This document shows, in pieces, positions 20,797 to 29,958 of a stretch of 64,000 nucleotides of DNA (the stretch's first letter is position 1; each line of letters starts with the position of its first letter). This DNA is from Acidimicrobiia bacterium. GTDB lineage: Bacteria; Actinomycetota; Acidimicrobiia; Spongiisociales; UBA11373. The position numbers were made by a program, and so were the translations under genes. Below the pieces are notes generated by a model. It searched no databases and was not told the DNA's origin. It worked only from the letters and a program-made list of their open reading frames with translations. The stretch spans positions 5,344-69,343 of the forward strand of contig JBKKBI010000062.1 of assembly GCA_046714175.1 (NCBI GenBank), written 5' to 3'.

Positions 20797-21420
20797 ATGG
20801 TCAGACGGCCCGTTCCCCGGGTCACCGTGCAGCGACTTCCCGTGTACCTCCGGTGCTTGGAGACTCTGCCAGCAGGCCAGCAGCGGGTCTCCTCGGATGA
20901 AGTGGCGGAGCTCGCTGGAGTCCTCGGCGCCAAGATCCGCAAGGACCTGTCCTACCTGGGCACCCACGGAACCCGCGGCGTCGGCTATGACGTGGAGCAT
21001 CTCAAGCACCAGATCCGTCTCGAACTCGGGCTGACCCGGGATTGGGCGGTGGTGATCGTCGGCATCGGCAACCTGGGCCGAGCCCTCGCCAACTACGGCG
21101 GGTTCGGCGAGCGCCGCTTCCAGGTGGTGGGTCTGTTCGATGTCGACCCCGACAAGGTGGGAACCCCGGTCGACGGCCACATGGTGGAGCCGATGACCGT
21201 GCTCGCCTCGGCGGTGGCGGAGCGCAACGCCTCCATCGGGATCATTGCCACCCCGGCCCACGCCGCCCAGGAAGTGGCCGACGCGCTGGCGGCCGCCGGG
21301 GTGCGCTCCATCCTCAACTTCGCTCCGGCCGTGCTCAAAGCCCCAGCCGGGGTCGAGGTACGCCGCGTCGACCTATCGACGGAGCTGCAGGTGCTCACGT
21401 TCTATCTCGCCCGGAGCTGA
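20797..21420 (+). CDS. rex: Redox-sensing transcriptional repressor Rex
   Basis: VQRLPVYLRCL...SSDEVAELAGV..KIRKDLSYLG..GTRGVGYDV; Rossmann VVIVGIGNLGRAL. ATG chosen at 20797 within the longer track ORF. Confidence 0.8.
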   Translation: MVRRPVPRVTVQRLPVYLRCLETLPAGQQRVSSDEVAELAGVLGAKIRKDLSYLGTHGTRGVGYDVEHLKHQIRLELGLTRDWAVVIVGIGNLGRALANYGGFGERRFQVVGLFDVDPDKVGTPVDGHMVEPMTVLASAVAERNASIGIIATPAHAAQEVADALAAAGVRSILNFAPAVLKAPAGVEVRRVDLSTELQVLTFYLARS

Positions 21421-21446: not shown

Positions 21447-21938
21447 CTATTCCTGCTCCGCCTCATACCTGCTCAATCCCGTCACGAACATGGCGAACAG
21501 GATCAGCGATGCCAGCATCAGGGCTCCGGGGAGGATGCGGATCTGGAACGCGTTCAGGCCGACGAGCAATTGCGGGCGAATGCCGCGAGGGGCGTACACC
21601 GTGTAGAGCAGGCCGACGATGGCGAGAAACCCGAAGAAGGCGGCCCCGGTGGTGAGAAAGGCGAGACGCCGTCCCAGGTTGGTGTAGTTGATCAGGTAGA
21701 CGCTTCCCCAAAAGACTGCGATCGCGCCGATGGCGACGATCAAGCCCCGCACCAGCACACCAGGGGCGGGGGTTCCGTCGGCGGCCACCTGGTTCTTCCC
21801 GACCATGCTCTCATACAGCGAATCGAGTCCGGCGCGGAACTGCGGGATCATCGAGAGCAGGATGAGGACGGTCAGTGCGACGCCGATCCACTCCAGGGTG
21901 GACAGGCCCGACTCTTCCTTGCGCACTCGCCGAATCAT
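21447..21938 (-). CDS. Membrane protein (4 TM), last gene of the cytochrome bc-type operon
   Basis: Hydrophobic 163 aa with a 4-bp overlap with the upstream cytochrome c gene. Confidence 0.4.
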   Translation of the reverse strand: MIRRVRKEESGLSTLEWIGVALTVLILLSMIPQFRAGLDSLYESMVGKNQVAADGTPAPGVLVRGLIVAIGAIAVFWGSVYLINYTNLGRRLAFLTTGAAFFGFLAIVGLLYTVYAPRGIRPQLLVGLNAFQIRILPGALMLASLILFAMFVTGLSRYEAEQE

Positions 21939-23434
21939 CCCATCGCCCTCTCGTACTGAATGATGAGCCTGATGTCCGCTTCGCTGAGCATGGCACCGAA
22001 TCCCGGCATCCAGCCGCGCCCGATACCGTTGACCCCGTACTGAGCCCCGTTGGCCGATCCAGCGACCACGAAGTCGTAGTGGTCCTCGATGTCGGGGAAC
22101 TGCACCACCGCACGGCCCTGGCGGAGCGATGGACCCATAGCTCCCGACCCTGCCTCCTGGGTGAAGACGATGCCAGCCGAATAGCCGGCCGTGTGGCAGC
22201 GGGCGCAGTACGCGTTGTATAGGCCCACCGCCCGCTCCGCGGCGGCGACATCGCCTGCGAAGGCCTCCTCCGCCAGCATCGGCAGGTCCACCGCGTATCG
22301 GCGCAATTCCTCTGCGGCGACGACAGCCGCCAGCCCGCTCTCAGCGGCGGTGAGCAGCCGATCGAGGTTTTCGGTGGTGAGCCGCAGGTCTCGCACACTG
22401 GTGCCGAGGTCTGTGAGCAGCACCTGGGCACTGTCGAGGTCGGCGATCGGGGTGGCGCCATTGGAGGTGCTGAACGCCAGCGCCGGATCAAACTCCAGCT
22501 TCTCGATCCTGGCGCGGGCGTCGGAGGGTGGTGCGTCGGCGATGATCTGGGCCACGAGGCTGTCAAGGCCTGCCTCGGCGGTGTCGGACAGGCCGTCACG
22601 GTCGCCATCGGCGGCGGCGCCGTCGCAGGACTCGCCGAACAGCGCCGCCGAGCGCTCGGTGCATGTGTCCGCGTCGGTGAGCAAGTCGTTGAGCCGTTGC
22701 GGTAGTTCGCGCACCGCGTCGTATTGCCCCGGGGCGGCTTCCAGCGCCGCGATCGCCGCTCGCTGGGCCGCCACCGCGGCTGTCACCGCGGCGTCGGCCC
22801 CTTCCAGCCGGGTGAGTTCGCGGGCGACTCTTCCATCGACTGCGGCGATCACTTCGGATTGCGGGATCTGGATGCTCTCTAGATACGCCAGCAGCTCATC
22901 GATCTGTTGGGTGTTGAGCGGCCCGCCGCCCTCGGCTCCCCAGGCGGGCATCGGAGTGCCCGCCCGGCCGTACACCAGCCAATACCGAACCTCGTCGGCG
23001 GTGTACCGATAGAACACGTCATTGATGGCTGGTGCCGCCCAGGTGGTTTCGATACCGGACCGGGCCTCGATGAAACTGGCACCGCCGCCGCCGGCGTCGC
23101 TTCCATGGCAGTTGCCGCATTGGTACTCGACGAACCACTCATGGCCCCGTTCCACGGCGACGTCCTCGTAGTACTCGGTGGCGTCGGCCTGGCGGGTGGT
23201 CTCATTGAGGTAGTAGATCGGCATCACCACGGCGATCACGGCCACGGTCACCAGCGCGGAGAGCAACACGCGGTCGAGCCGCTTCAACTCAAGATCGTCG
23301 TCGGTGAGATACGGAGTCAGATTGGGCGGCGGGGTGTCGGAGCGGTGGCGGACCCGAGTGTTGCGAACGAGAAAGGCGAGCCAGCCGATGACCGCCACGG
23401 CGACGATGAGGAGCGTGGCGGCGCCGAGGCCCAT
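21935..23434 (-). CDS. Membrane-anchored diheme c-type cytochrome (two CxxCH domains separated by a roughly 250-aa linker)
   Basis: N-terminal TM helix. CGNCHG in domain 1 and CARCHTAG in domain 2. The linker is Ala-rich and helical with DGDRDGLSD. Confidence 0.75.
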   Translation of the reverse strand: MGLGAATLLIVAVAVIGWLAFLVRNTRVRHRSDTPPPNLTPYLTDDDLELKRLDRVLLSALVTVAVIAVVMPIYYLNETTRQADATEYYEDVAVERGHEWFVEYQCGNCHGSDAGGGGASFIEARSGIETTWAAPAINDVFYRYTADEVRYWLVYGRAGTPMPAWGAEGGGPLNTQQIDELLAYLESIQIPQSEVIAAVDGRVARELTRLEGADAAVTAAVAAQRAAIAALEAAPGQYDAVRELPQRLNDLLTDADTCTERSAALFGESCDGAAADGDRDGLSDTAEAGLDSLVAQIIADAPPSDARARIEKLEFDPALAFSTSNGATPIADLDSAQVLLTDLGTSVRDLRLTTENLDRLLTAAESGLAAVVAAEELRRYAVDLPMLAEEAFAGDVAAAERAVGLYNAYCARCHTAGYSAGIVFTQEAGSGAMGPSLRQGRAVVQFPDIEDHYDFVVAGSANGAQYGVNGIGRGWMPGFGAMLSEADIRLIIQYERAMG

Positions 23435-23462
23435 CAGCGGATCCCCAACTCGACTGCAGACA

Positions 23463-24281
23463 TCAGATGCACGAGGGCCCCTGCGGGTAGGTGGCCGTCT
23501 TGTGTGAGGCCCGCGAGGTCTGTATCACCTGACCGGTATCGATGATCAGCACTCCGGCATCGTCCACTTCGACGACGAAACGGTCGAGATTCCGGGGTGC
23601 CGGGCCGCCTTCGTACTCCCCGTGGTAGTTGTATTTGGAGGAGTGGCAGGGACACTCGAACCCTTGCGAGGTATCGCATTGCGGCACGCGGCAGCCGAGG
23701 TGGACGCAACGTTGCCACAGCGCCATGAGGCCACCGGCCACCACGGGGAGTCCCTCAAAGCTACTGCCGGCCATTTCCCCCTGGAACGGCACGAGGTAGG
23801 CCTGAGCCGCGGGGACGAACAGCGGGCTGACCCGGCCATCGGCGAGGAAGACCTGTGTGGCGAGATCCTCGGCCTTTCCTGCGGCAACCTTGGAGCCGAA
23901 TCCCCCCGCTTTGATGCGGGGCCACATGAAGCCGAGGGTGAAGATGCCCATCTGGGCCATGAACAGCCCGAAGATCCCGGCCACGCCGCGATTGAAAAAC
24001 TGGCGCCGGGTGACTCCGTACGCCTCCGGGCCGACCTCCTCGCGCTGGGTGAGGGGATCGATCGGCGGGGTTTCGTCGAGTTCGACCGGCACCACGGTCT
24101 TCGCGGCGGAGGCTGCGTCAGCGCGGCGGCGGCGCTTGTCGCGACGCAGGGCCTTGCGGTCGGCGGACCCGGTGATCGGTCCGGTGTCGGAGTTACGCCG
24201 CAACGCCACGCTGGCCACGGCGAGCGCGCCGAGCAGGCCGACGGCGGCAAAGGCGAGGATGGCGATCTGGGTCGTGCTCAT
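23463..24281 (-). CDS. qcrA: Rieske [2Fe-2S] iron-sulfur subunit
   Basis: CVHLGCRVP ... CPCHSSKY Rieske boxes. TM anchor MSTTQIAILAFAAVGLLGAL. ATGA overlap with the upstream gene. Confidence 0.85.
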   Translation of the reverse strand: MSTTQIAILAFAAVGLLGALAVASVALRRNSDTGPITGSADRKALRRDKRRRRADAASAAKTVVPVELDETPPIDPLTQREEVGPEAYGVTRRQFFNRGVAGIFGLFMAQMGIFTLGFMWPRIKAGGFGSKVAAGKAEDLATQVFLADGRVSPLFVPAAQAYLVPFQGEMAGSSFEGLPVVAGGLMALWQRCVHLGCRVPQCDTSQGFECPCHSSKYNYHGEYEGGPAPRNLDRFVVEVDDAGVLIIDTGQVIQTSRASHKTATYPQGPSCI

Positions 24282-24970
24282 AGGTCGAAGAAGATCCCGT
24301 CGCGCCAGGGGAAGATGAAGTTGAGGCCGCGTCCCCGGTAGAACGAACCGATCATGGTGAGGATCGCCGCCGCCACCACGAAGAACGTGAACATCATGAT
24401 GGCGAACTTGCGGTCGGACGGCCGGGTGGAGCGGTTGCGGTCGATGTAGGGGATGATCGCCAGGCCGGCGAGCCCCAGTCCGGGGATGAGCACGCCGGCG
24501 ATCTGTGGGTCGAAATACACCAGCAACTCCTGCAGCCCGAGGAAGTACCACGGAGCCTTCGAGGGATTGGGCTGGGCGTTGGGGTTGGCCAACTCGAGCA
24601 GCGGCGCATCCTGGAAGATCGAGAACACGATCAGCAGCGCGGTCACGACCAGCAGGGCGACGAACTCCATGGCCAGGAGGTGAGGCCACACGTTGACCTT
24701 GTCGGTGGGCTCCTTCTTCACCTGCTGGATCGCGTTGGCCTTCACCACGGTGAGCAGGCGCTGCGTGCGCACTCCTTCGGGGATGGCGGGCGCGGCGGGG
24801 GCGCTGCGGGCCGGGGCGGTGGCGGTGGCGGTGGCGGCTACGGCCGGTGCCGCACCGGGCAATGCGGCCCCGCCGGTCATCTCGGCCCACACCTGTTCGA
24901 ACGGCACACCGGTGGCCTTGGCCTTGGCCTCGGCCGAGCGGCGGAGTAGATGTTCGGGAACGGTTGCCAT
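24278..24970 (-). CDS. Cytochrome b C-terminal portion as a separate subunit (b6f subunit-IV-like) with a roughly 100-aa N-terminal extension
   Basis: NPSKAPWYFLGLQELLVYF is the PEWY-region equivalent. Three TM helices. N-terminal RSAEAKAKATGVPFEQVWAEMTGG module. Confidence 0.7.
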   Translation of the reverse strand: MATVPEHLLRRSAEAKAKATGVPFEQVWAEMTGGAALPGAAPAVAATATATAPARSAPAAPAIPEGVRTQRLLTVVKANAIQQVKKEPTDKVNVWPHLLAMEFVALLVVTALLIVFSIFQDAPLLELANPNAQPNPSKAPWYFLGLQELLVYFDPQIAGVLIPGLGLAGLAIIPYIDRNRSTRPSDRKFAIMMFTFFVVAAAILTMIGSFYRGRGLNFIFPWRDGIFFDL

Positions 24971-24982
24971 GTCTCGTATCTC

Positions 24983-25768
24983 CTACAGCGGTCCCGAGAT
25001 GCCGCCGTCCTTGCGCACCCGCCAAAAGTGCACCGCCATGAAAATGACGATCAGGAAGGGCAGGGCGAGGACGTGCAGGACGTAGAAGCGGAGCAGTGTC
25101 GGCGCCCCCACCTGGAGCCCTCCGAGCAAGACGAACGAGACCTGGTCGCCGAACACCGGCGTATAGCCACCCATGTTGGTGCCCACCGTCACCGCCCAGA
25201 TGGCCAGCTGGTCCCAGGGGAGCAGGTATCCGGTGAAGGACAGCAGCAGGGTGAGGAACAAGAGCACCACTCCCACCACCCAGTTGAATTCGCGCGGCGG
25301 CTTGTAGGCCCCGTGATAGAAGACCCGGGTCATGTGCAGAAACACCGTGATCACCATCAGGTGAGCGCCCCAGCGGTGCAGGTTGCGCACGATCTGGCCA
25401 AAGGCGACATCGGTGGAGAGCGCCTGGATGTCCGGGTAGGCCTGCGTGGCGGACGGCGTGTAATAGAACATCAAAAAGATGCCGGTGATGGTCAGCAGAA
25501 TGAACAAGAAGAAAGACAACCCGCCCAGACACAGGGTGTAGGACAGGCGAACCGCGTGCCGCTTCACCTTCACGGGGTGAAGGTGATAGAGCACGTTGTT
25601 CATGATCACGTAAGAGCGGTTGCGGGGGCTGTCGGCGTACCCCTTACGCATCGGTGAACCGGGGCGGAACATCGACTCCCAGGCCTCCGAGCCGCGGATA
25701 CGGGTGCCTACCCCGGCGATGCGCTCGCCGAGTCTGGTGCGTCCGTTGCCGTTTCCGTTGCTCGCCAC
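24983..25768 (-). CDS. qcrB: Cytochrome b N-terminal (b6-like) subunit
   Basis: [25 protein letters not shown] and [27 protein letters not shown] show a heme-b bis-His four-helix pattern. Ends after helix D. Confidence 0.8.
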
Positions 25769-25826
25769 TTCGCCTCCGTTGCGTCCTCAGTCTCCGCCGC
25801 CACCCGTCATTCGGTCAAATCACCAG

Positions 25827-26276
25827 TTACCAGCGCACCCCATAGGCGTAACCATTGCGATCATCGCGCTGCCCGCTGTCTACATCCCACGGGGAGTCGC
25901 CGCCCTTGGCTGCGGCGGTCGCCGCCAGGGAACCGTCGTACTTCCCCAAAGCGATCACCCCGGTCGGGCACCGATCCACGCAGAGCGCGCACCGGGTGCA
26001 CTCGTCCTCGTCGACTACGAAAAAGCCCCGATTGGCGGTGTCCTCGCGGGGGTCGGCGACATTGGTGGCCTCGGCGATGGCATCCATGGACAGATAGTGG
26101 ATGCACTTCCACGGGCAGATGTCGACGCAGCCCTCACACAGGATGCACTCCGACTGGTCGATGTGGAGGTACTGCTTGGGCTTCACGGCTGCAGCGAGAT
26201 ACGAGCCGTCGACCATCGCCAACTGATAGTCCTCCCGGAAGGGGGGAGTCTCGAGCCAGGCTTCGGTGGGGGCCAT
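25827..26276 (-). CDS. 2x[4Fe-4S] ferredoxin with a C-terminal extension
   Basis: CILCEGCVDICP and CTRCALCVDRCP. Confidence 0.75.
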   Translation of the reverse strand: MAPTEAWLETPPFREDYQLAMVDGSYLAAAVKPKQYLHIDQSECILCEGCVDICPWKCIHYLSMDAIAEATNVADPREDTANRGFFVVDEDECTRCALCVDRCPTGVIALGKYDGSLAATAAAKGGDSPWDVDSGQRDDRNGYAYGVRW

Positions 26277-26993
26277 CTACTTGCCTCCCTTCACGACTGT
26301 CCGGCCATACAGGGAGGTCGTCGTAGCCGCGGCCCGGCGTGCGGCGCGCCTGCCCCGCTCCTGCCACTGGTAGGCGATGATCGCGACCGCGGCGACCACC
26401 GTCGTGGCATACCCGGCGACGATGATGTCCTTGAGGGTGCCGTAGGAGAGCGACACGTTGTTGTTGAGCACCAACCACTTGGGCACGGTCAGCAGGATTC
26501 TTCGCTGCGACCAATCGAGTGTCCCCTGCGCCAGGTTGAGCCACTGGTTGGGCACCACACCGAGGAGGATCAGCATCTCCAGGGTGAAGATGAAGGCACC
26601 CACCGTCGCCAGCGCCCAGGTCAACTTGCGGCCGTAGATCCATCCAAAGACGATTGCCGCCAGCCCGATCTGTGAACCGAGCACGGCGATGGCACCGCCC
26701 GTCATCGGCAGTACCCAGCACAGGTCGGGGTTGGTCTCGAAAAACATGCAGCGCGGGACCCAGGAGTAGATCGGTCGGCCTACCGAGTCGGCCACGGGAA
26801 GGGCGGTGAAATGGGCGATGGCCACCCCGAGGGCGAGCAGCAAGAAGCCGACGACGACGCCGATGACGCCGATTCGCCTGCGCTTCTGGTCGGTCACCGT
26901 GCTGTCTCCTTGGGCGGGCAACATCTTACGCCCGTGTCGGCCCCGCCCGATTCCCGCAGGCGCTTGCCGGAGCCGGTCCCCATCGCCCATCGC
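26277..26993 (-). CDS. Membrane protein (about 5 TM), first gene of the cytochrome b operon
   Basis: Start chosen at the ATG at 26991-26993, which is preceded by GGGAGGAG. The 27044 GTG start would overlap the divergent gene. Confidence 0.4.
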   Translation of the reverse strand, partial: AMGDGDRLRQAPAGIGRGRHGRKMLPAQGDSTVTDQKRRRIGVIGVVVGFLLLALGVAIAHFTALPVADSVGRPIYSWVPRCMFFETNPDLCWVLPMTGGAIAVLGSQIGLAAIVFGWIYGRKLTWALATVGAFIFTLEMLILLGVVPNQWLNLAQGTLDWSQRRILLTVPKWLVLNNNVSLSYGTLKDIIVAGYATTVVAAVAIIAYQWQERGRRAARRAAATTTSLYGRTVVKGGK

Positions 26994-27100
26994 CGATGGC
27001 TCCTCCCGGGTATCGATCGCCGGCTCGTCCTCGCCGCGCGACACGACCCCGTAGCCGAACCTCTAACCTCCGACCGGTTCGCGCACGAAGGGATCGGGGA

Positions 27101-28996
27101 GTGGCTTCGGCAGCAGGCAACAACGGGGGGCATGGCAACCCGTCGCGGCTGGCCGGGCTCACCATTCGCCTCTCCTTCCTGATCGCTGCCGCCTTTCTCC
27201 TCGTCGGGCTGGCCCTTGCCGGAGTCGCCGCTGCCCAGCTGGTCTCTCCGGACCTGGTTTCGGGCAACGCGATGCTCTCTTACGGGCGGGTCTTTCCCGC
27301 CGGCACCGCCGCACTCCTCTTCGGCTGGCTGACAGTGGCGTTCGTCGGTGTGTCGTTCCACGCCGTTCCCCGGCTGGTGGGTTCCCACCTGGCGATGCCG
27401 CTCTTTGCGTTCGGTGCCCTCGGTCTCATCGCCGGTGGCGCCGCTGCCGGCGTTGCGATGATCCTCCTGGGAGAAAACGTCGGCGGGCGTTGGCTCGAGT
27501 TCCCGCTCTTCGTCGATGGCGCTCTTGTGGCCGGATATGCCGCGGTCGCCGGCGTGCTCGTGATGACGTGTCGTCGCGGTACCCGAGAAGGCATTCCGCT
27601 TCCCGCTTGGTACCTGGTGGCGGGTTCGGTCTGGCTGCTCTTCGCCCAAGCGGCGGGGGCGATCCCTGGATTGGAGGGACTCGCCGGTGAGGTCCAGTCC
27701 GCCTTCACCGGTGCTGCCCTGTTCGGCATGTGGGCGGCCACCGCCGGCGTCGGGGTGGCCTACACCGTCGCTGCCGGAGCAATCGGTGAGGTGCGGTTCA
27801 ACGAACGGTTGGGGCGGATCGGCTTCTGGTCCCTGGCGTTCATGTGGGTGTGGACCACCGCCCGGGTGCTCCAGTTCGGACCGACCAAGGATTGGATCGA
27901 GACGGTCCCGGTGGTGTTCGGGGCGGGACTGGTGGTCGCGGTACTCGCGATCGCGACCGACTTCGCCGGGGCACTGCGCGGCCGGTGGTCGGCGGTAGCC
28001 GCTTCGCCGCCATTGCAGATGGTCGTTGCTGGTCTCGGCTTCCTCGTGATAGCGGTTGCGACCGCATTTGTCGGAACCATGCGTTCGGGGTCGGCGGTGC
28101 TCCGCTTCACCGCCTGGGACTCCGGCGTCGAGGCCGCGGCGCTCCTGGGCGCGTTCACCCTGTTCGCCCTGGCGGGTATCGCGGCGACGGCGCCGGCGTT
28201 GCGCGGCCGCACCTGGGGAGTCTGGTCGGGCCGAGGGGTGTTGTGGCCGGTGGTGGTGGGCGCCGGGGTTGCGGTGGGCTCGCGATTGATGGCCGGGGTG
28301 CAGCAGGGGCTGTCGTGGCTTGCCGGCGTGCAGACGGGTGAGTATCAGAATTTCGGGGATGGGTTCGGTCGTTCGCTCGCGCCACTGGCCGGTCTCGACG
28401 GCGCCTACCTGGTGGGTGTTGGCCTGATCGCCCTTGGCGCGGTCGGCTTTGCGCTACGCGTCCTGTGGTTGAGCATCGGCGCAAGCCATGGCCACTCGCA
28501 GCCGGTGGTCGGTTTCATCACTCAGCCACTCAGGTCGTTGCTGCGTGGTGCGGTGGCGGTCTTCGCGCTCGGCGCGTTGGGTGCCTTCGCCTTCCCCGCG
28601 GTCGACTCGCGGCCATCGGCTTCTGTGCTGGCGGAGACCACCCGCAACTTTGCCGCCAACCCGGTGGCGGAGTTGGGGCGGGAGGTCTATGTCCGCGAGG
28701 GGTGCTGGTATTGCCACACCCAGCAGGTGCGCCAGGTACGCACCGATCTCGGACTGGGACCGGTTTCGCAGCCGGGCGACTACGCCTACGACCCCGCCGG
28801 TGTCGCCGGGTGGCGGCGCATCGGCCCCGATCTGATGCACACGGGGAGTCGCAACGACACCGCGAGTGCCGCCTGGGTGCGGAACCACCTGACCGATCCG
28901 CGCGCCGAGCATGCATGGTCGGTGATGCCGTCGTTCGAGTATCTCAGTAACGAGGAACTGACGGCGCTGTCGGTCTACGTTTCGGGATTGGAGTGA
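27101..28996 (+). CDS. Polytopic membrane protein (about 12 TM, lacks heme-copper His ligands) fused to a C-terminal CcoO/FixO-like monoheme cytochrome c domain
   Basis: C-terminal ELGREVYVREGCWYCHTQQVR is a CcoO-like CxxCH. The N-terminal 470 aa are hydrophobic with few His. GTG at 27101 (RBS ggggag) was chosen. The track start at 26996 overlaps the divergent gene. Confidence 0.55.
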   Translation: MASAAGNNGGHGNPSRLAGLTIRLSFLIAAAFLLVGLALAGVAAAQLVSPDLVSGNAMLSYGRVFPAGTAALLFGWLTVAFVGVSFHAVPRLVGSHLAMPLFAFGALGLIAGGAAAGVAMILLGENVGGRWLEFPLFVDGALVAGYAAVAGVLVMTCRRGTREGIPLPAWYLVAGSVWLLFAQAAGAIPGLEGLAGEVQSAFTGAALFGMWAATAGVGVAYTVAAGAIGEVRFNERLGRIGFWSLAFMWVWTTARVLQFGPTKDWIETVPVVFGAGLVVAVLAIATDFAGALRGRWSAVAASPPLQMVVAGLGFLVIAVATAFVGTMRSGSAVLRFTAWDSGVEAAALLGAFTLFALAGIAATAPALRGRTWGVWSGRGVLWPVVVGAGVAVGSRLMAGVQQGLSWLAGVQTGEYQNFGDGFGRSLAPLAGLDGAYLVGVGLIALGAVGFALRVLWLSIGASHGHSQPVVGFITQPLRSLLRGAVAVFALGALGAFAFPAVDSRPSASVLAETTRNFAANPVAELGREVYVREGCWYCHTQQVRQVRTDLGLGPVSQPGDYAYDPAGVAGWRRIGPDLMHTGSRNDTASAAWVRNHLTDPRAEHAWSVMPSFEYLSNEELTALSVYVSGLE

Positions 28997-29958
28997 CCAT
29001 GGACGAACTGCTCGCTGCAGCGGCCAAAGCCACCGGGATGTCGGAGAACATGGTCAAGCGGTCCGCTACGGCTCGAGCCAAGGCGCAGGGAACCACGGTG
29101 GAAGCAGTGCTGGCGGAGTGGGCCGGCGTGCCGGTGCCCGCAGCAGCCGCGTCCGCCCCGGCGGCGACCGAGCCGGCGGCGGAGGCTGCGGCTGCGGAGA
29201 CCGCTATCCCCGCCGAGGTCGCGGCCCCCGCTGCGGAGACCGCGGCCCCCACCGAGGTTGCTGAGTCGGAACCCGCCGAGGTTGCTGAGACGGAACCCGC
29301 CTCGGATCTCGAGATCGAAGAGAGCGGGGAAGAGGTCGCGCCGACACCGGCCGCGCCAGCACCTGTGGCCGCGGTGCGCGAGGTGGTGCCGTCGGGTGCC
29401 ATCCCGCGCTGGCTGGCCGGCCTATTCGTCGCGGTGCCGCTATTTGCGCTCACCTATCTCGCCTTCGTTCCCAACGGACCCGCTTGTGGTGATGCCGGTT
29501 CGCTGGCCGTCGACCCTGTCACCGGCGAGATGGTCAATTGCGACGGCACCGCCATCGGCGGCGAGGGGGAGACCGACTATTTCGCTCTTGGCCTCGAGGT
29601 GTATGGAAGCAGTGGCTGCATCGCATGCCACGGCGAGGGTGGCGCCGGAGCCGGCGACTTCCCCGCCTTTACCGAAGGGGCGCTGCTGGCGACCTTCCCC
29701 GAAGGATCCTGTTCCACCCATATCGAGTGGATTCGATTGGGCACTGCGCAATGGCCCGAGCCGACCTACGGCGCCAACAACAAGCCCGTTGGTGGTTCAG
29801 GAGCGGTGATGCCGACCTTTGGCTCGCAGCTCAGCGACGAGGAGGTGAAGGCGGTCGCCCTGTACGAGCGTGTCGCCTTCGGCGGCCAGAGCCTGGAGGC
29901 GGCCATGCTCGATTGCGTCGGAGCCCCGACCGAAGCCGAGGCGGCGGCAGAGGGATAA
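28993..29958 (+). CDS. Membrane-anchored monoheme cytochrome c with an N-terminal module shared with the subunit-IV-like protein
   Basis: CIACHGEGG and VMPTF in the cytochrome c domain. One TM helix. N-terminal KRSATARAKAQGTTVEAVLAEWAG. Confidence 0.7.
   Translation: MTMDELLAAAAKATGMSENMVKRSATARAKAQGTTVEAVLAEWAGVPVPAAAASAPAATEPAAEAAAAETAIPAEVAAPAAETAAPTEVAESEPAEVAETEPASDLEIEESGEEVAPTPAAPAPVAAVREVVPSGAIPRWLAGLFVAVPLFALTYLAFVPNGPACGDAGSLAVDPVTGEMVNCDGTAIGGEGETDYFALGLEVYGSSGCIACHGEGGAGAGDFPAFTEGALLATFPEGSCSTHIEWIRLGTAQWPEPTYGANNKPVGGSGAVMPTFGSQLSDEEVKAVALYERVAFGGQSLEAAMLDCVGAPTEAEAAAEG

Follow-up and report, generated by a model that had tools for sequence, protein, structure and literature searches.

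Rieske/cytochrome b complexes with the Qo motif APWY form a clade that was defined by Kao and Hunte, together with the CxGG motif of short cytochrome b (PMC4122944). The APWY complexes had no characterised member at the time of that work, and it was proposed that they may operate in reverse (PMC4122944). Actinobacterial split forms of cytochrome b fall in either the PEWY-cyt c clade or the APWY clade, and a split cytochrome b has already been recorded for Ilumatobacter, a member of the Acidimicrobidae (PMC4122944). By comparative genomics, NAD(P)-binding FeS oxidoreductases are found alongside the complexes of subfamily G, a partnership that is frequent in the literature without being a strict requirement (PMC5600118).

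The window analysed here, a stretch of 64,000 nucleotides from an Acidimicrobiia genome, contains a locus of nine genes at 21447–29958, according to ORF calls and a domain search. The nine-gene content given by the initial annotation was borne out, with slight shifts of some start codons. The minus-strand operon encodes, from 5' to 3', a 4-TM protein, a 2x[4Fe-4S] ferredoxin, a short cytochrome b6, subunit IV, a Rieske protein, a diheme cytochrome c, and another 4-TM protein. On the plus strand, a CcoN-CcoO fusion followed by a monoheme cytochrome c diverges from this operon. The 4-bp overlaps previously described for consecutive genes exist at the subunit IV/Rieske, cytochrome c/4-TM protein, and ccoNO/cytochrome c junctions, but at the remaining junctions the genes are separated by 0 to 58 bp. 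The 203-bp divergent intergenic (promoter) region between the two operons (26898–27100) contains no sigma-70 consensus site and no match to a Rex operator. The Rex redox-sensing repressor itself (20797–21420, plus strand; NCBIfam Rex, 299.8 bits) is the convergent neighbour it was annotated to be, and is syntenic in most Acidimicrobiia loci. We consider, with a probability of roughly 0.6, that the two divergent operons represent the standard complex III-type quinol-oxidising machinery of Acidimicrobiia, equipped with a c-heme relay or scaffold and an n-side FeS branch. An entire class of environmental bacteria would then have this locus as its conserved respiratory complex III locus.

Since the same genes in the same order are present on more than 35 further contigs of Acidimicrobiia, the arrangement is not a matter of chance. 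Whether the CcoN-like protein or the ferredoxin is used as the seed, the layout is strict, and its synteny extends over the Acidimicrobiia to loci whose CcoN-like proteins are as little as 33% identical. The divergent pairing is seen in every locus with a contig spanning both sides, and the layout is also kept in a variant with separate CcoN and CcoO. Contig L083 carries a truncated CcoN-like copy, and the locus is deleted on contig L086. The ferredoxin and both membrane proteins, which might have turned out to be peculiar to this genome, accompany the core in distant Acidimicrobiia loci as well. The locus is thus the ordinary one of the class Acidimicrobiia, as had been considered, but not an already characterised one, as no experimental characterisation was found in the literature.

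The b subunit comes in two pieces of 261 and 230 residues. The short cytochrome b6-like subunit (24983–25768, minus strand) matches PF00033 (1e-48) as well as the NCBIfam ExtP model (308 bits, cut-off 290), and its nearest solved structures are the b6 chains of cyanobacteria and plants (1.9e-49). The Geobacter Cbc6/Ext Rieske-b module is grouped with the APWY-clade/subfamily G complexes; no porin-cytochrome or ext-type multiheme genes of the ext operon context lie near the locus, and the name ExtP/ExtQ would be a misnomer here. The four histidines for hemes bL and bH on helices B and D and the TLCLGG sequence, from which a heme ci is predicted, are kept in every one of the 34 Acidimicrobiia copies of full length; the 35th copy is truncated and retains TLCLGG and the first two histidines. 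The subunit IV-like protein (24278–24970, minus strand) has an N-terminal cytoplasmic extension, neither a CxxCH motif nor any cysteine, and matches PF00032 (6e-10), whereas its score of 56 bits with ExtQ is under the cut-off of 150. Its Qo motif APWY is found in 29 of 29 Acidimicrobiia copies and in 36 of 36 copies from other phyla. The Rieske [2Fe-2S] protein (23463–24281, minus strand; 272 residues, PF00355) bears the motifs CVHLGC and CPCHSS, conserved among 29 Acidimicrobiia copies as CVHLGC/CPCH(S/G)S, in addition to an extra N-terminal TM helix and a twin-arginine-like RRQFF motif. It fits the PetC model (54.8 bits) better than QcrA_actin (27.6 bits). Judged from these residues, the core module is a Rieske/short b6/subunit IV unit with a full set of predicted cofactor ligands, the heme-ci cysteine motif, and APWY. 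Its APWY motif places the core in the uncharacterised APWY clade of Kao and Hunte (PMC4122944); by this motif and its phylum range, it apparently corresponds to subfamily G of Dibrova (PMC5600118).

Cytochrome b is indeed split, as the initial annotation stated, but in neither of the styles to which the split was ascribed. A Bacillus-style b6c was rejected because subunit IV lacks a fused cytochrome c domain. The b6f style was likewise rejected because no gene of the locus matches cytochrome f, and the c-type subunits match class I cytochrome c families only. The scores with the actinobacterial NCBIfam models QcrA (27.6 bits), QcrB (113.5 bits), and QcrC (21.1 bits) are far under the respective cut-offs of 275, 500, and 200 bits, which, together with the split b, excludes a canonical QcrCAB at this locus, in agreement with the earlier reading.

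The operon also encodes a membrane-anchored diheme cytochrome c of 499 residues (21935–23434, minus strand) with two predicted N-terminal TM helices, CxxCH motifs at residues 106 and 410, a long Ala-rich linker, and Cytochrom_C and Cytochrome_CBB3 domains; a length of about 500 residues is held in other loci. The first gene, memA (26277–26897, minus strand), starts with a GTG codon at 26897 downstream of AAGGAGA, and an identical 206-residue protein is on record (P0184). The 255-residue protein with five TM helices assumed before was therefore too long; hydropathy and the AF2 model indicate four TM helices. The last gene, mem4 (21447–21938, minus strand), encodes a 4-TM protein of 163 residues without any His or Cys, found in every complete Acidimicrobiia locus; profile searches gave no Pfam or NCBIfam match. 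Both memA and mem4 are lineage-specific 4-TM subunits.

The ferredoxin-like 2x[4Fe-4S] subunit (25827–26276, minus strand; 149 residues) contains two CxxCxxCxxxCP motifs (Fer4, E-value 2.7e-12) and is predicted to be cytoplasmic (n-side) because of the absence of a signal peptide. All eight cluster cysteines and the N- and C-terminal extensions are conserved in 120 homologues; the homologues amount to 2015 clusters. Outside the Acidimicrobiia, the best matches are the C-terminal di-cluster domains of approximately 650-residue Fer4_20+Pyr_redox_2+Fer4 proteins in Rieske/b-cbb3 clusters (34–46 bits). The resemblance to this GltD-like C-terminal domain is modest (27–30% identity), exceeding that to the window's own NuoI (31.5 bits) by only about 3–15 bits. 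The coupled ferredoxin had been thought to have no textbook counterpart, which does not hold: FeS partners are known from subfamily G, and the ferredoxin is closest to their C-terminal di-cluster domain. The Acidimicrobiia loci contain no Pyr_redox or Fer4_20 gene, and the 149-residue di-cluster protein is found instead of the large NAD(P)-binding FeS oxidoreductase.

Such a conserved FeS subunit raises the possibility, which we regard as tentative, that the complex bifurcates electrons or runs in reverse, along the lines proposed for APWY/subfamily G complexes, those of anammox among them. Driven by the high-potential branch (Rieske to c hemes), the second electron would be pushed via bL, bH, and ci into the FeS subunit and on to a cytoplasmic low-potential acceptor (ferredoxin or flavoprotein), or electrons would pass from such a donor to the quinone pool, and the FeS branch would be no relic but what the enzyme is for. 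The Qo motif APWY, which Kao and Hunte tied to reverse operation (PMC4122944), is consistent with this, as are the strict conservation of the heme-ci cysteine alongside the equally strict conservation of the FeS protein, extensions included, and the homology of the ferredoxin to the FeS domain of the NAD(P) oxidoreductase subunits in related complexes (PMC5600118). However, no gene for an FAD or NAD(P) domain lies in or beside the locus, and the relatives with the full NAD(P)-FeS protein are devoid of the heme-ci cysteine, so a wire from ci to FeS is not general. Bifurcation is, moreover, compatible with the complex III-type machinery that we favour and not exclusive of it.

The first gene of the divergent pair encodes a CcoN-like/CcoO-like fusion of 631 residues (27101–28996, plus strand) with matches to COX1 (8.7e-26) and FixO (2.6e-23). 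Its start lies 35 codons inside the ORF called before, and an identical 631-residue protein is on record (P0001). Residues 1 to about 500 are CcoN-like, and a CcoO-like monoheme c domain spans about residues 520–631. The AF2 model of the fusion agrees with the CcoN chains 6xkw_n, 8smr_E, and 3mk7_A at TM-scores of 0.83–0.86 (Foldseek). All 43 Acidimicrobiia copies, one from the window and 42 from other loci, lack the six histidine ligands (two for heme b, one for heme b3, and three for CuB), the cross-link tyrosine, and the glutamate invariant in true CcoN. The same eight residues (H/E/H/Y/H/H/H/H) are retained in 40 of 40 relatives from other phyla. In the Acidimicrobiia these positions are occupied by G/A/S, T/A, W, R, or variable hydrophobic residues, and not one His, Met, Cys, or Lys is invariant in the CcoN-like domain. 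It keeps the 12-helix fold of heme-copper oxidases, while all heme and copper ligands are gone. The membrane protein that had been noticed as His-poor accordingly lacks every canonical heme-copper oxidase ligand, and the pair is cbb3-related, as supposed, with a catalytically dead CcoN joined to CcoO. In the CcoO domain the heme-c site is intact, with CWYCH and the Met-Pro ligand motif invariant. Because every metal ligand of the catalytic core is lost, the fusion is, as far as its residues tell, not an oxidase by the known mechanism, despite its oxidase label in databases. Acidimicrobiia MAGs have been reported to carry both caa3 and "cbb3" oxidases (PMC8357290).

With a mean identity of 38.5%, against 56.6% for the CcoO domain, the CcoN-like domain is the faster evolving of the two, and the CcoN-like gene is the fastest evolving of the locus. 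This rate, the truncated copy, and the deleted locus would be expected of a pseudogene in decay or an artefact of annotation, an explanation we hold to be the least credible of all, as the frame of 600–700 residues is intact in more than 40 genomes that have diverged to 33% identity and the predicted fold is confident. The 33 near-invariant residues of the domain, mostly the structural ones of true CcoN, suggest selection for the fold without the catalytic residues. Purifying selection on the domain might also indicate a reductase for O2, NO, or another substrate still operating through non-canonical ligands, and new active sites have arisen time and again within the heme-copper oxidase superfamily (PMC11214002). 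We find this highly improbable: all eight canonical residues have disappeared, none of the domain's His, Met, Cys, or Lys residues is conserved, and the cofactor-insertion genes ccoG and ccoI, of the ccoGHIS maturation set, were not found within about 10 kb on either side of the Acidimicrobiia loci. Even the replacement of a single active-site histidine in gNOR has been called a first (PMC11214002).

The second gene of the pair (28993–29958, plus strand) encodes a CcoP-like monoheme cytochrome c of 321 residues, composed of an N-terminal cytoplasmic motif, a single TM helix, and a C-terminal heme domain (Cytochrom_C, 1.6e-6; FixP_N weak, 0.024; TIGR ccoP, 25.9 bits). The motif of about 32 residues, PEHLLRRSAEAKAKATGVPFEQVWAEMTG in subunit IV (24866–24958, minus strand), thus occurs at the cytoplasmic N-termini of proteins from both operons, with the copy in the CcoP-like cytochrome at about 29035–29130. 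A library of 1.84 billion proteins holds 361 representatives, and the carriers checked are only subunit IV-like or cytochrome c proteins with one to seven copies each. The motif is covered by no Pfam family and is new.

In other phyla, the genes for Rieske, b, multiheme c, CcoN, CcoO, CcoG, and CcoI are found in one same-strand cluster, including FixG-type (CcoG-like) and copper P-type ATPase (CcoI-like) domain genes, together with a GltD-like NAD(P)/FeS protein of about 650 residues. These cbb3-linked relatives are without the heme-ci cysteine and their cytochrome b is mostly of the fused, long form; the Acidimicrobiia locus is therefore a relative of the b-cbb3 clusters, not a simple descendant. 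That true CcoN and CcoO genes share a strand and a cluster with Rieske/b genes there also bears on whether the pair belongs with the b6 operon at all. As a separate transcription unit, the pair could serve another purpose as a membrane cytochrome c module, e.g., donor oxidation or extracellular electron transfer, with only the promoter region in common, and gene order alone is no proof of a complex. We judge this independence unlikely, given the divergent pairing in all loci covered on both sides, unfused variant included, and the N-terminal motif that subunit IV has in common with the cytochrome c encoded by the divergent operon. On the grounds of synteny and the motif they share, the products of both operons may associate physically.

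For the complex III-type machinery, we infer a quinol:cytochrome c reductase mechanism with the c-heme relay or scaffold and the n-side FeS branch. Menaquinol would be oxidised at Qo, and one electron would pass from the Rieske protein to the diheme cytochrome c and through the c hemes that the CcoO and CcoP-like proteins carry to the real terminal oxidase, encoded elsewhere and probably of the caa3 type. The dead CcoN may be a mere membrane scaffold or docking platform that keeps the CcoO/CcoP c-heme wire beside the b6 complex, a relic of the kind of b-cbb3 supercomplex that other phyla still encode. The FeS protein, presumably what is left of the NAD(P)-FeS oxidoreductase subunit known from related complexes, would sit on the n-side near heme ci and give the low-potential chain a cytoplasmic entry or exit for electrons. 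Through the N-terminal motif, proteins from the two operons might be held together, either directly or by way of a cytoplasmic partner that both bind. The supercomplex and the ferredoxin-linked branch suggested by the initial annotation are likewise inferred. Bolder, and a shade more doubtful than bifurcation, is an unrecognised type of respiratory supercomplex, in which a heme-ci b6c complex is combined with an n-side 2x[4Fe-4S] subunit and a cofactor-less heme-copper oxidase subunit I. The empty CcoN would have a new job as docking platform, gated proton/ion path, or lipid/quinone site, and the FeS subunit, tethered by the helix-turn-helix-like motifs repeated at the N-termini of subunit IV and the CcoP-like cytochrome, would link the Q cycle directly to cytoplasmic redox chemistry at the ferredoxin level. 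If true, this would be the heme-copper oxidase superfamily's first member without any metal centre and the first respiratory analogue of a ferredoxin-fed b6f.

Compared with known systems, the locus shares with the actinobacterial QcrCAB-CtaCDEF (bcc-aa3) its phylum, a diheme c as the presumed built-in carrier, extra N-terminal TM helices in the Rieske protein, and, in all likelihood, menaquinol as substrate and direct wiring to an oxidase. Its cytochrome b is, however, split and short in contrast to the approximately 540-residue QcrB, and the gene order differs. With cytochrome b6f and the Bacillus/heliobacterial b6c (QcrABC/PetCBDA), it has the b6/subunit IV split and the four histidines in common, and its heme-ci cysteine (CLGG) is as in b6 and heliobacteria. 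Unlike these, it has APWY at Qo in place of PEWY or PDWY, extra FeS and membrane subunits, and neither a cytochrome f match nor a cytochrome c on subunit IV.

The CcoN fold, the CcoO heme-c domain (CxxCH plus Met ligand), the CcoP-like cytochrome following CcoO, and the genomic linkage to a Rieske/b complex resemble the cbb3 oxidase (CcoNOP) and the bc1-cbb3 supercomplexes (PDB 3MK7, 6XKW, 8SMR). The locus differs from them in that no ligand for heme b, heme b3, or CuB is left, the cross-linked tyrosine and the invariant glutamate are missing, CcoN and CcoO are fused, the CcoP-like protein is monoheme, and ccoGHIS is absent within the roughly 10 kb on each side that was covered. The APWY/subfamily G complexes (anammox R/b-2 and R/b-3), known essentially through genomics as is the locus, share with it the short b with CxGG, the separate subunit IV, APWY, the Rieske protein, and the link to FeS-containing cytoplasmic partners. 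In place of their approximately 650-residue NAD(P)/FAD/FeS subunit, however, the locus has a di-cluster protein of 149 residues; it adds two lineage-specific 4-TM subunits and a long-linker diheme c, and its operon is obligately paired with a dead cbb3 module.

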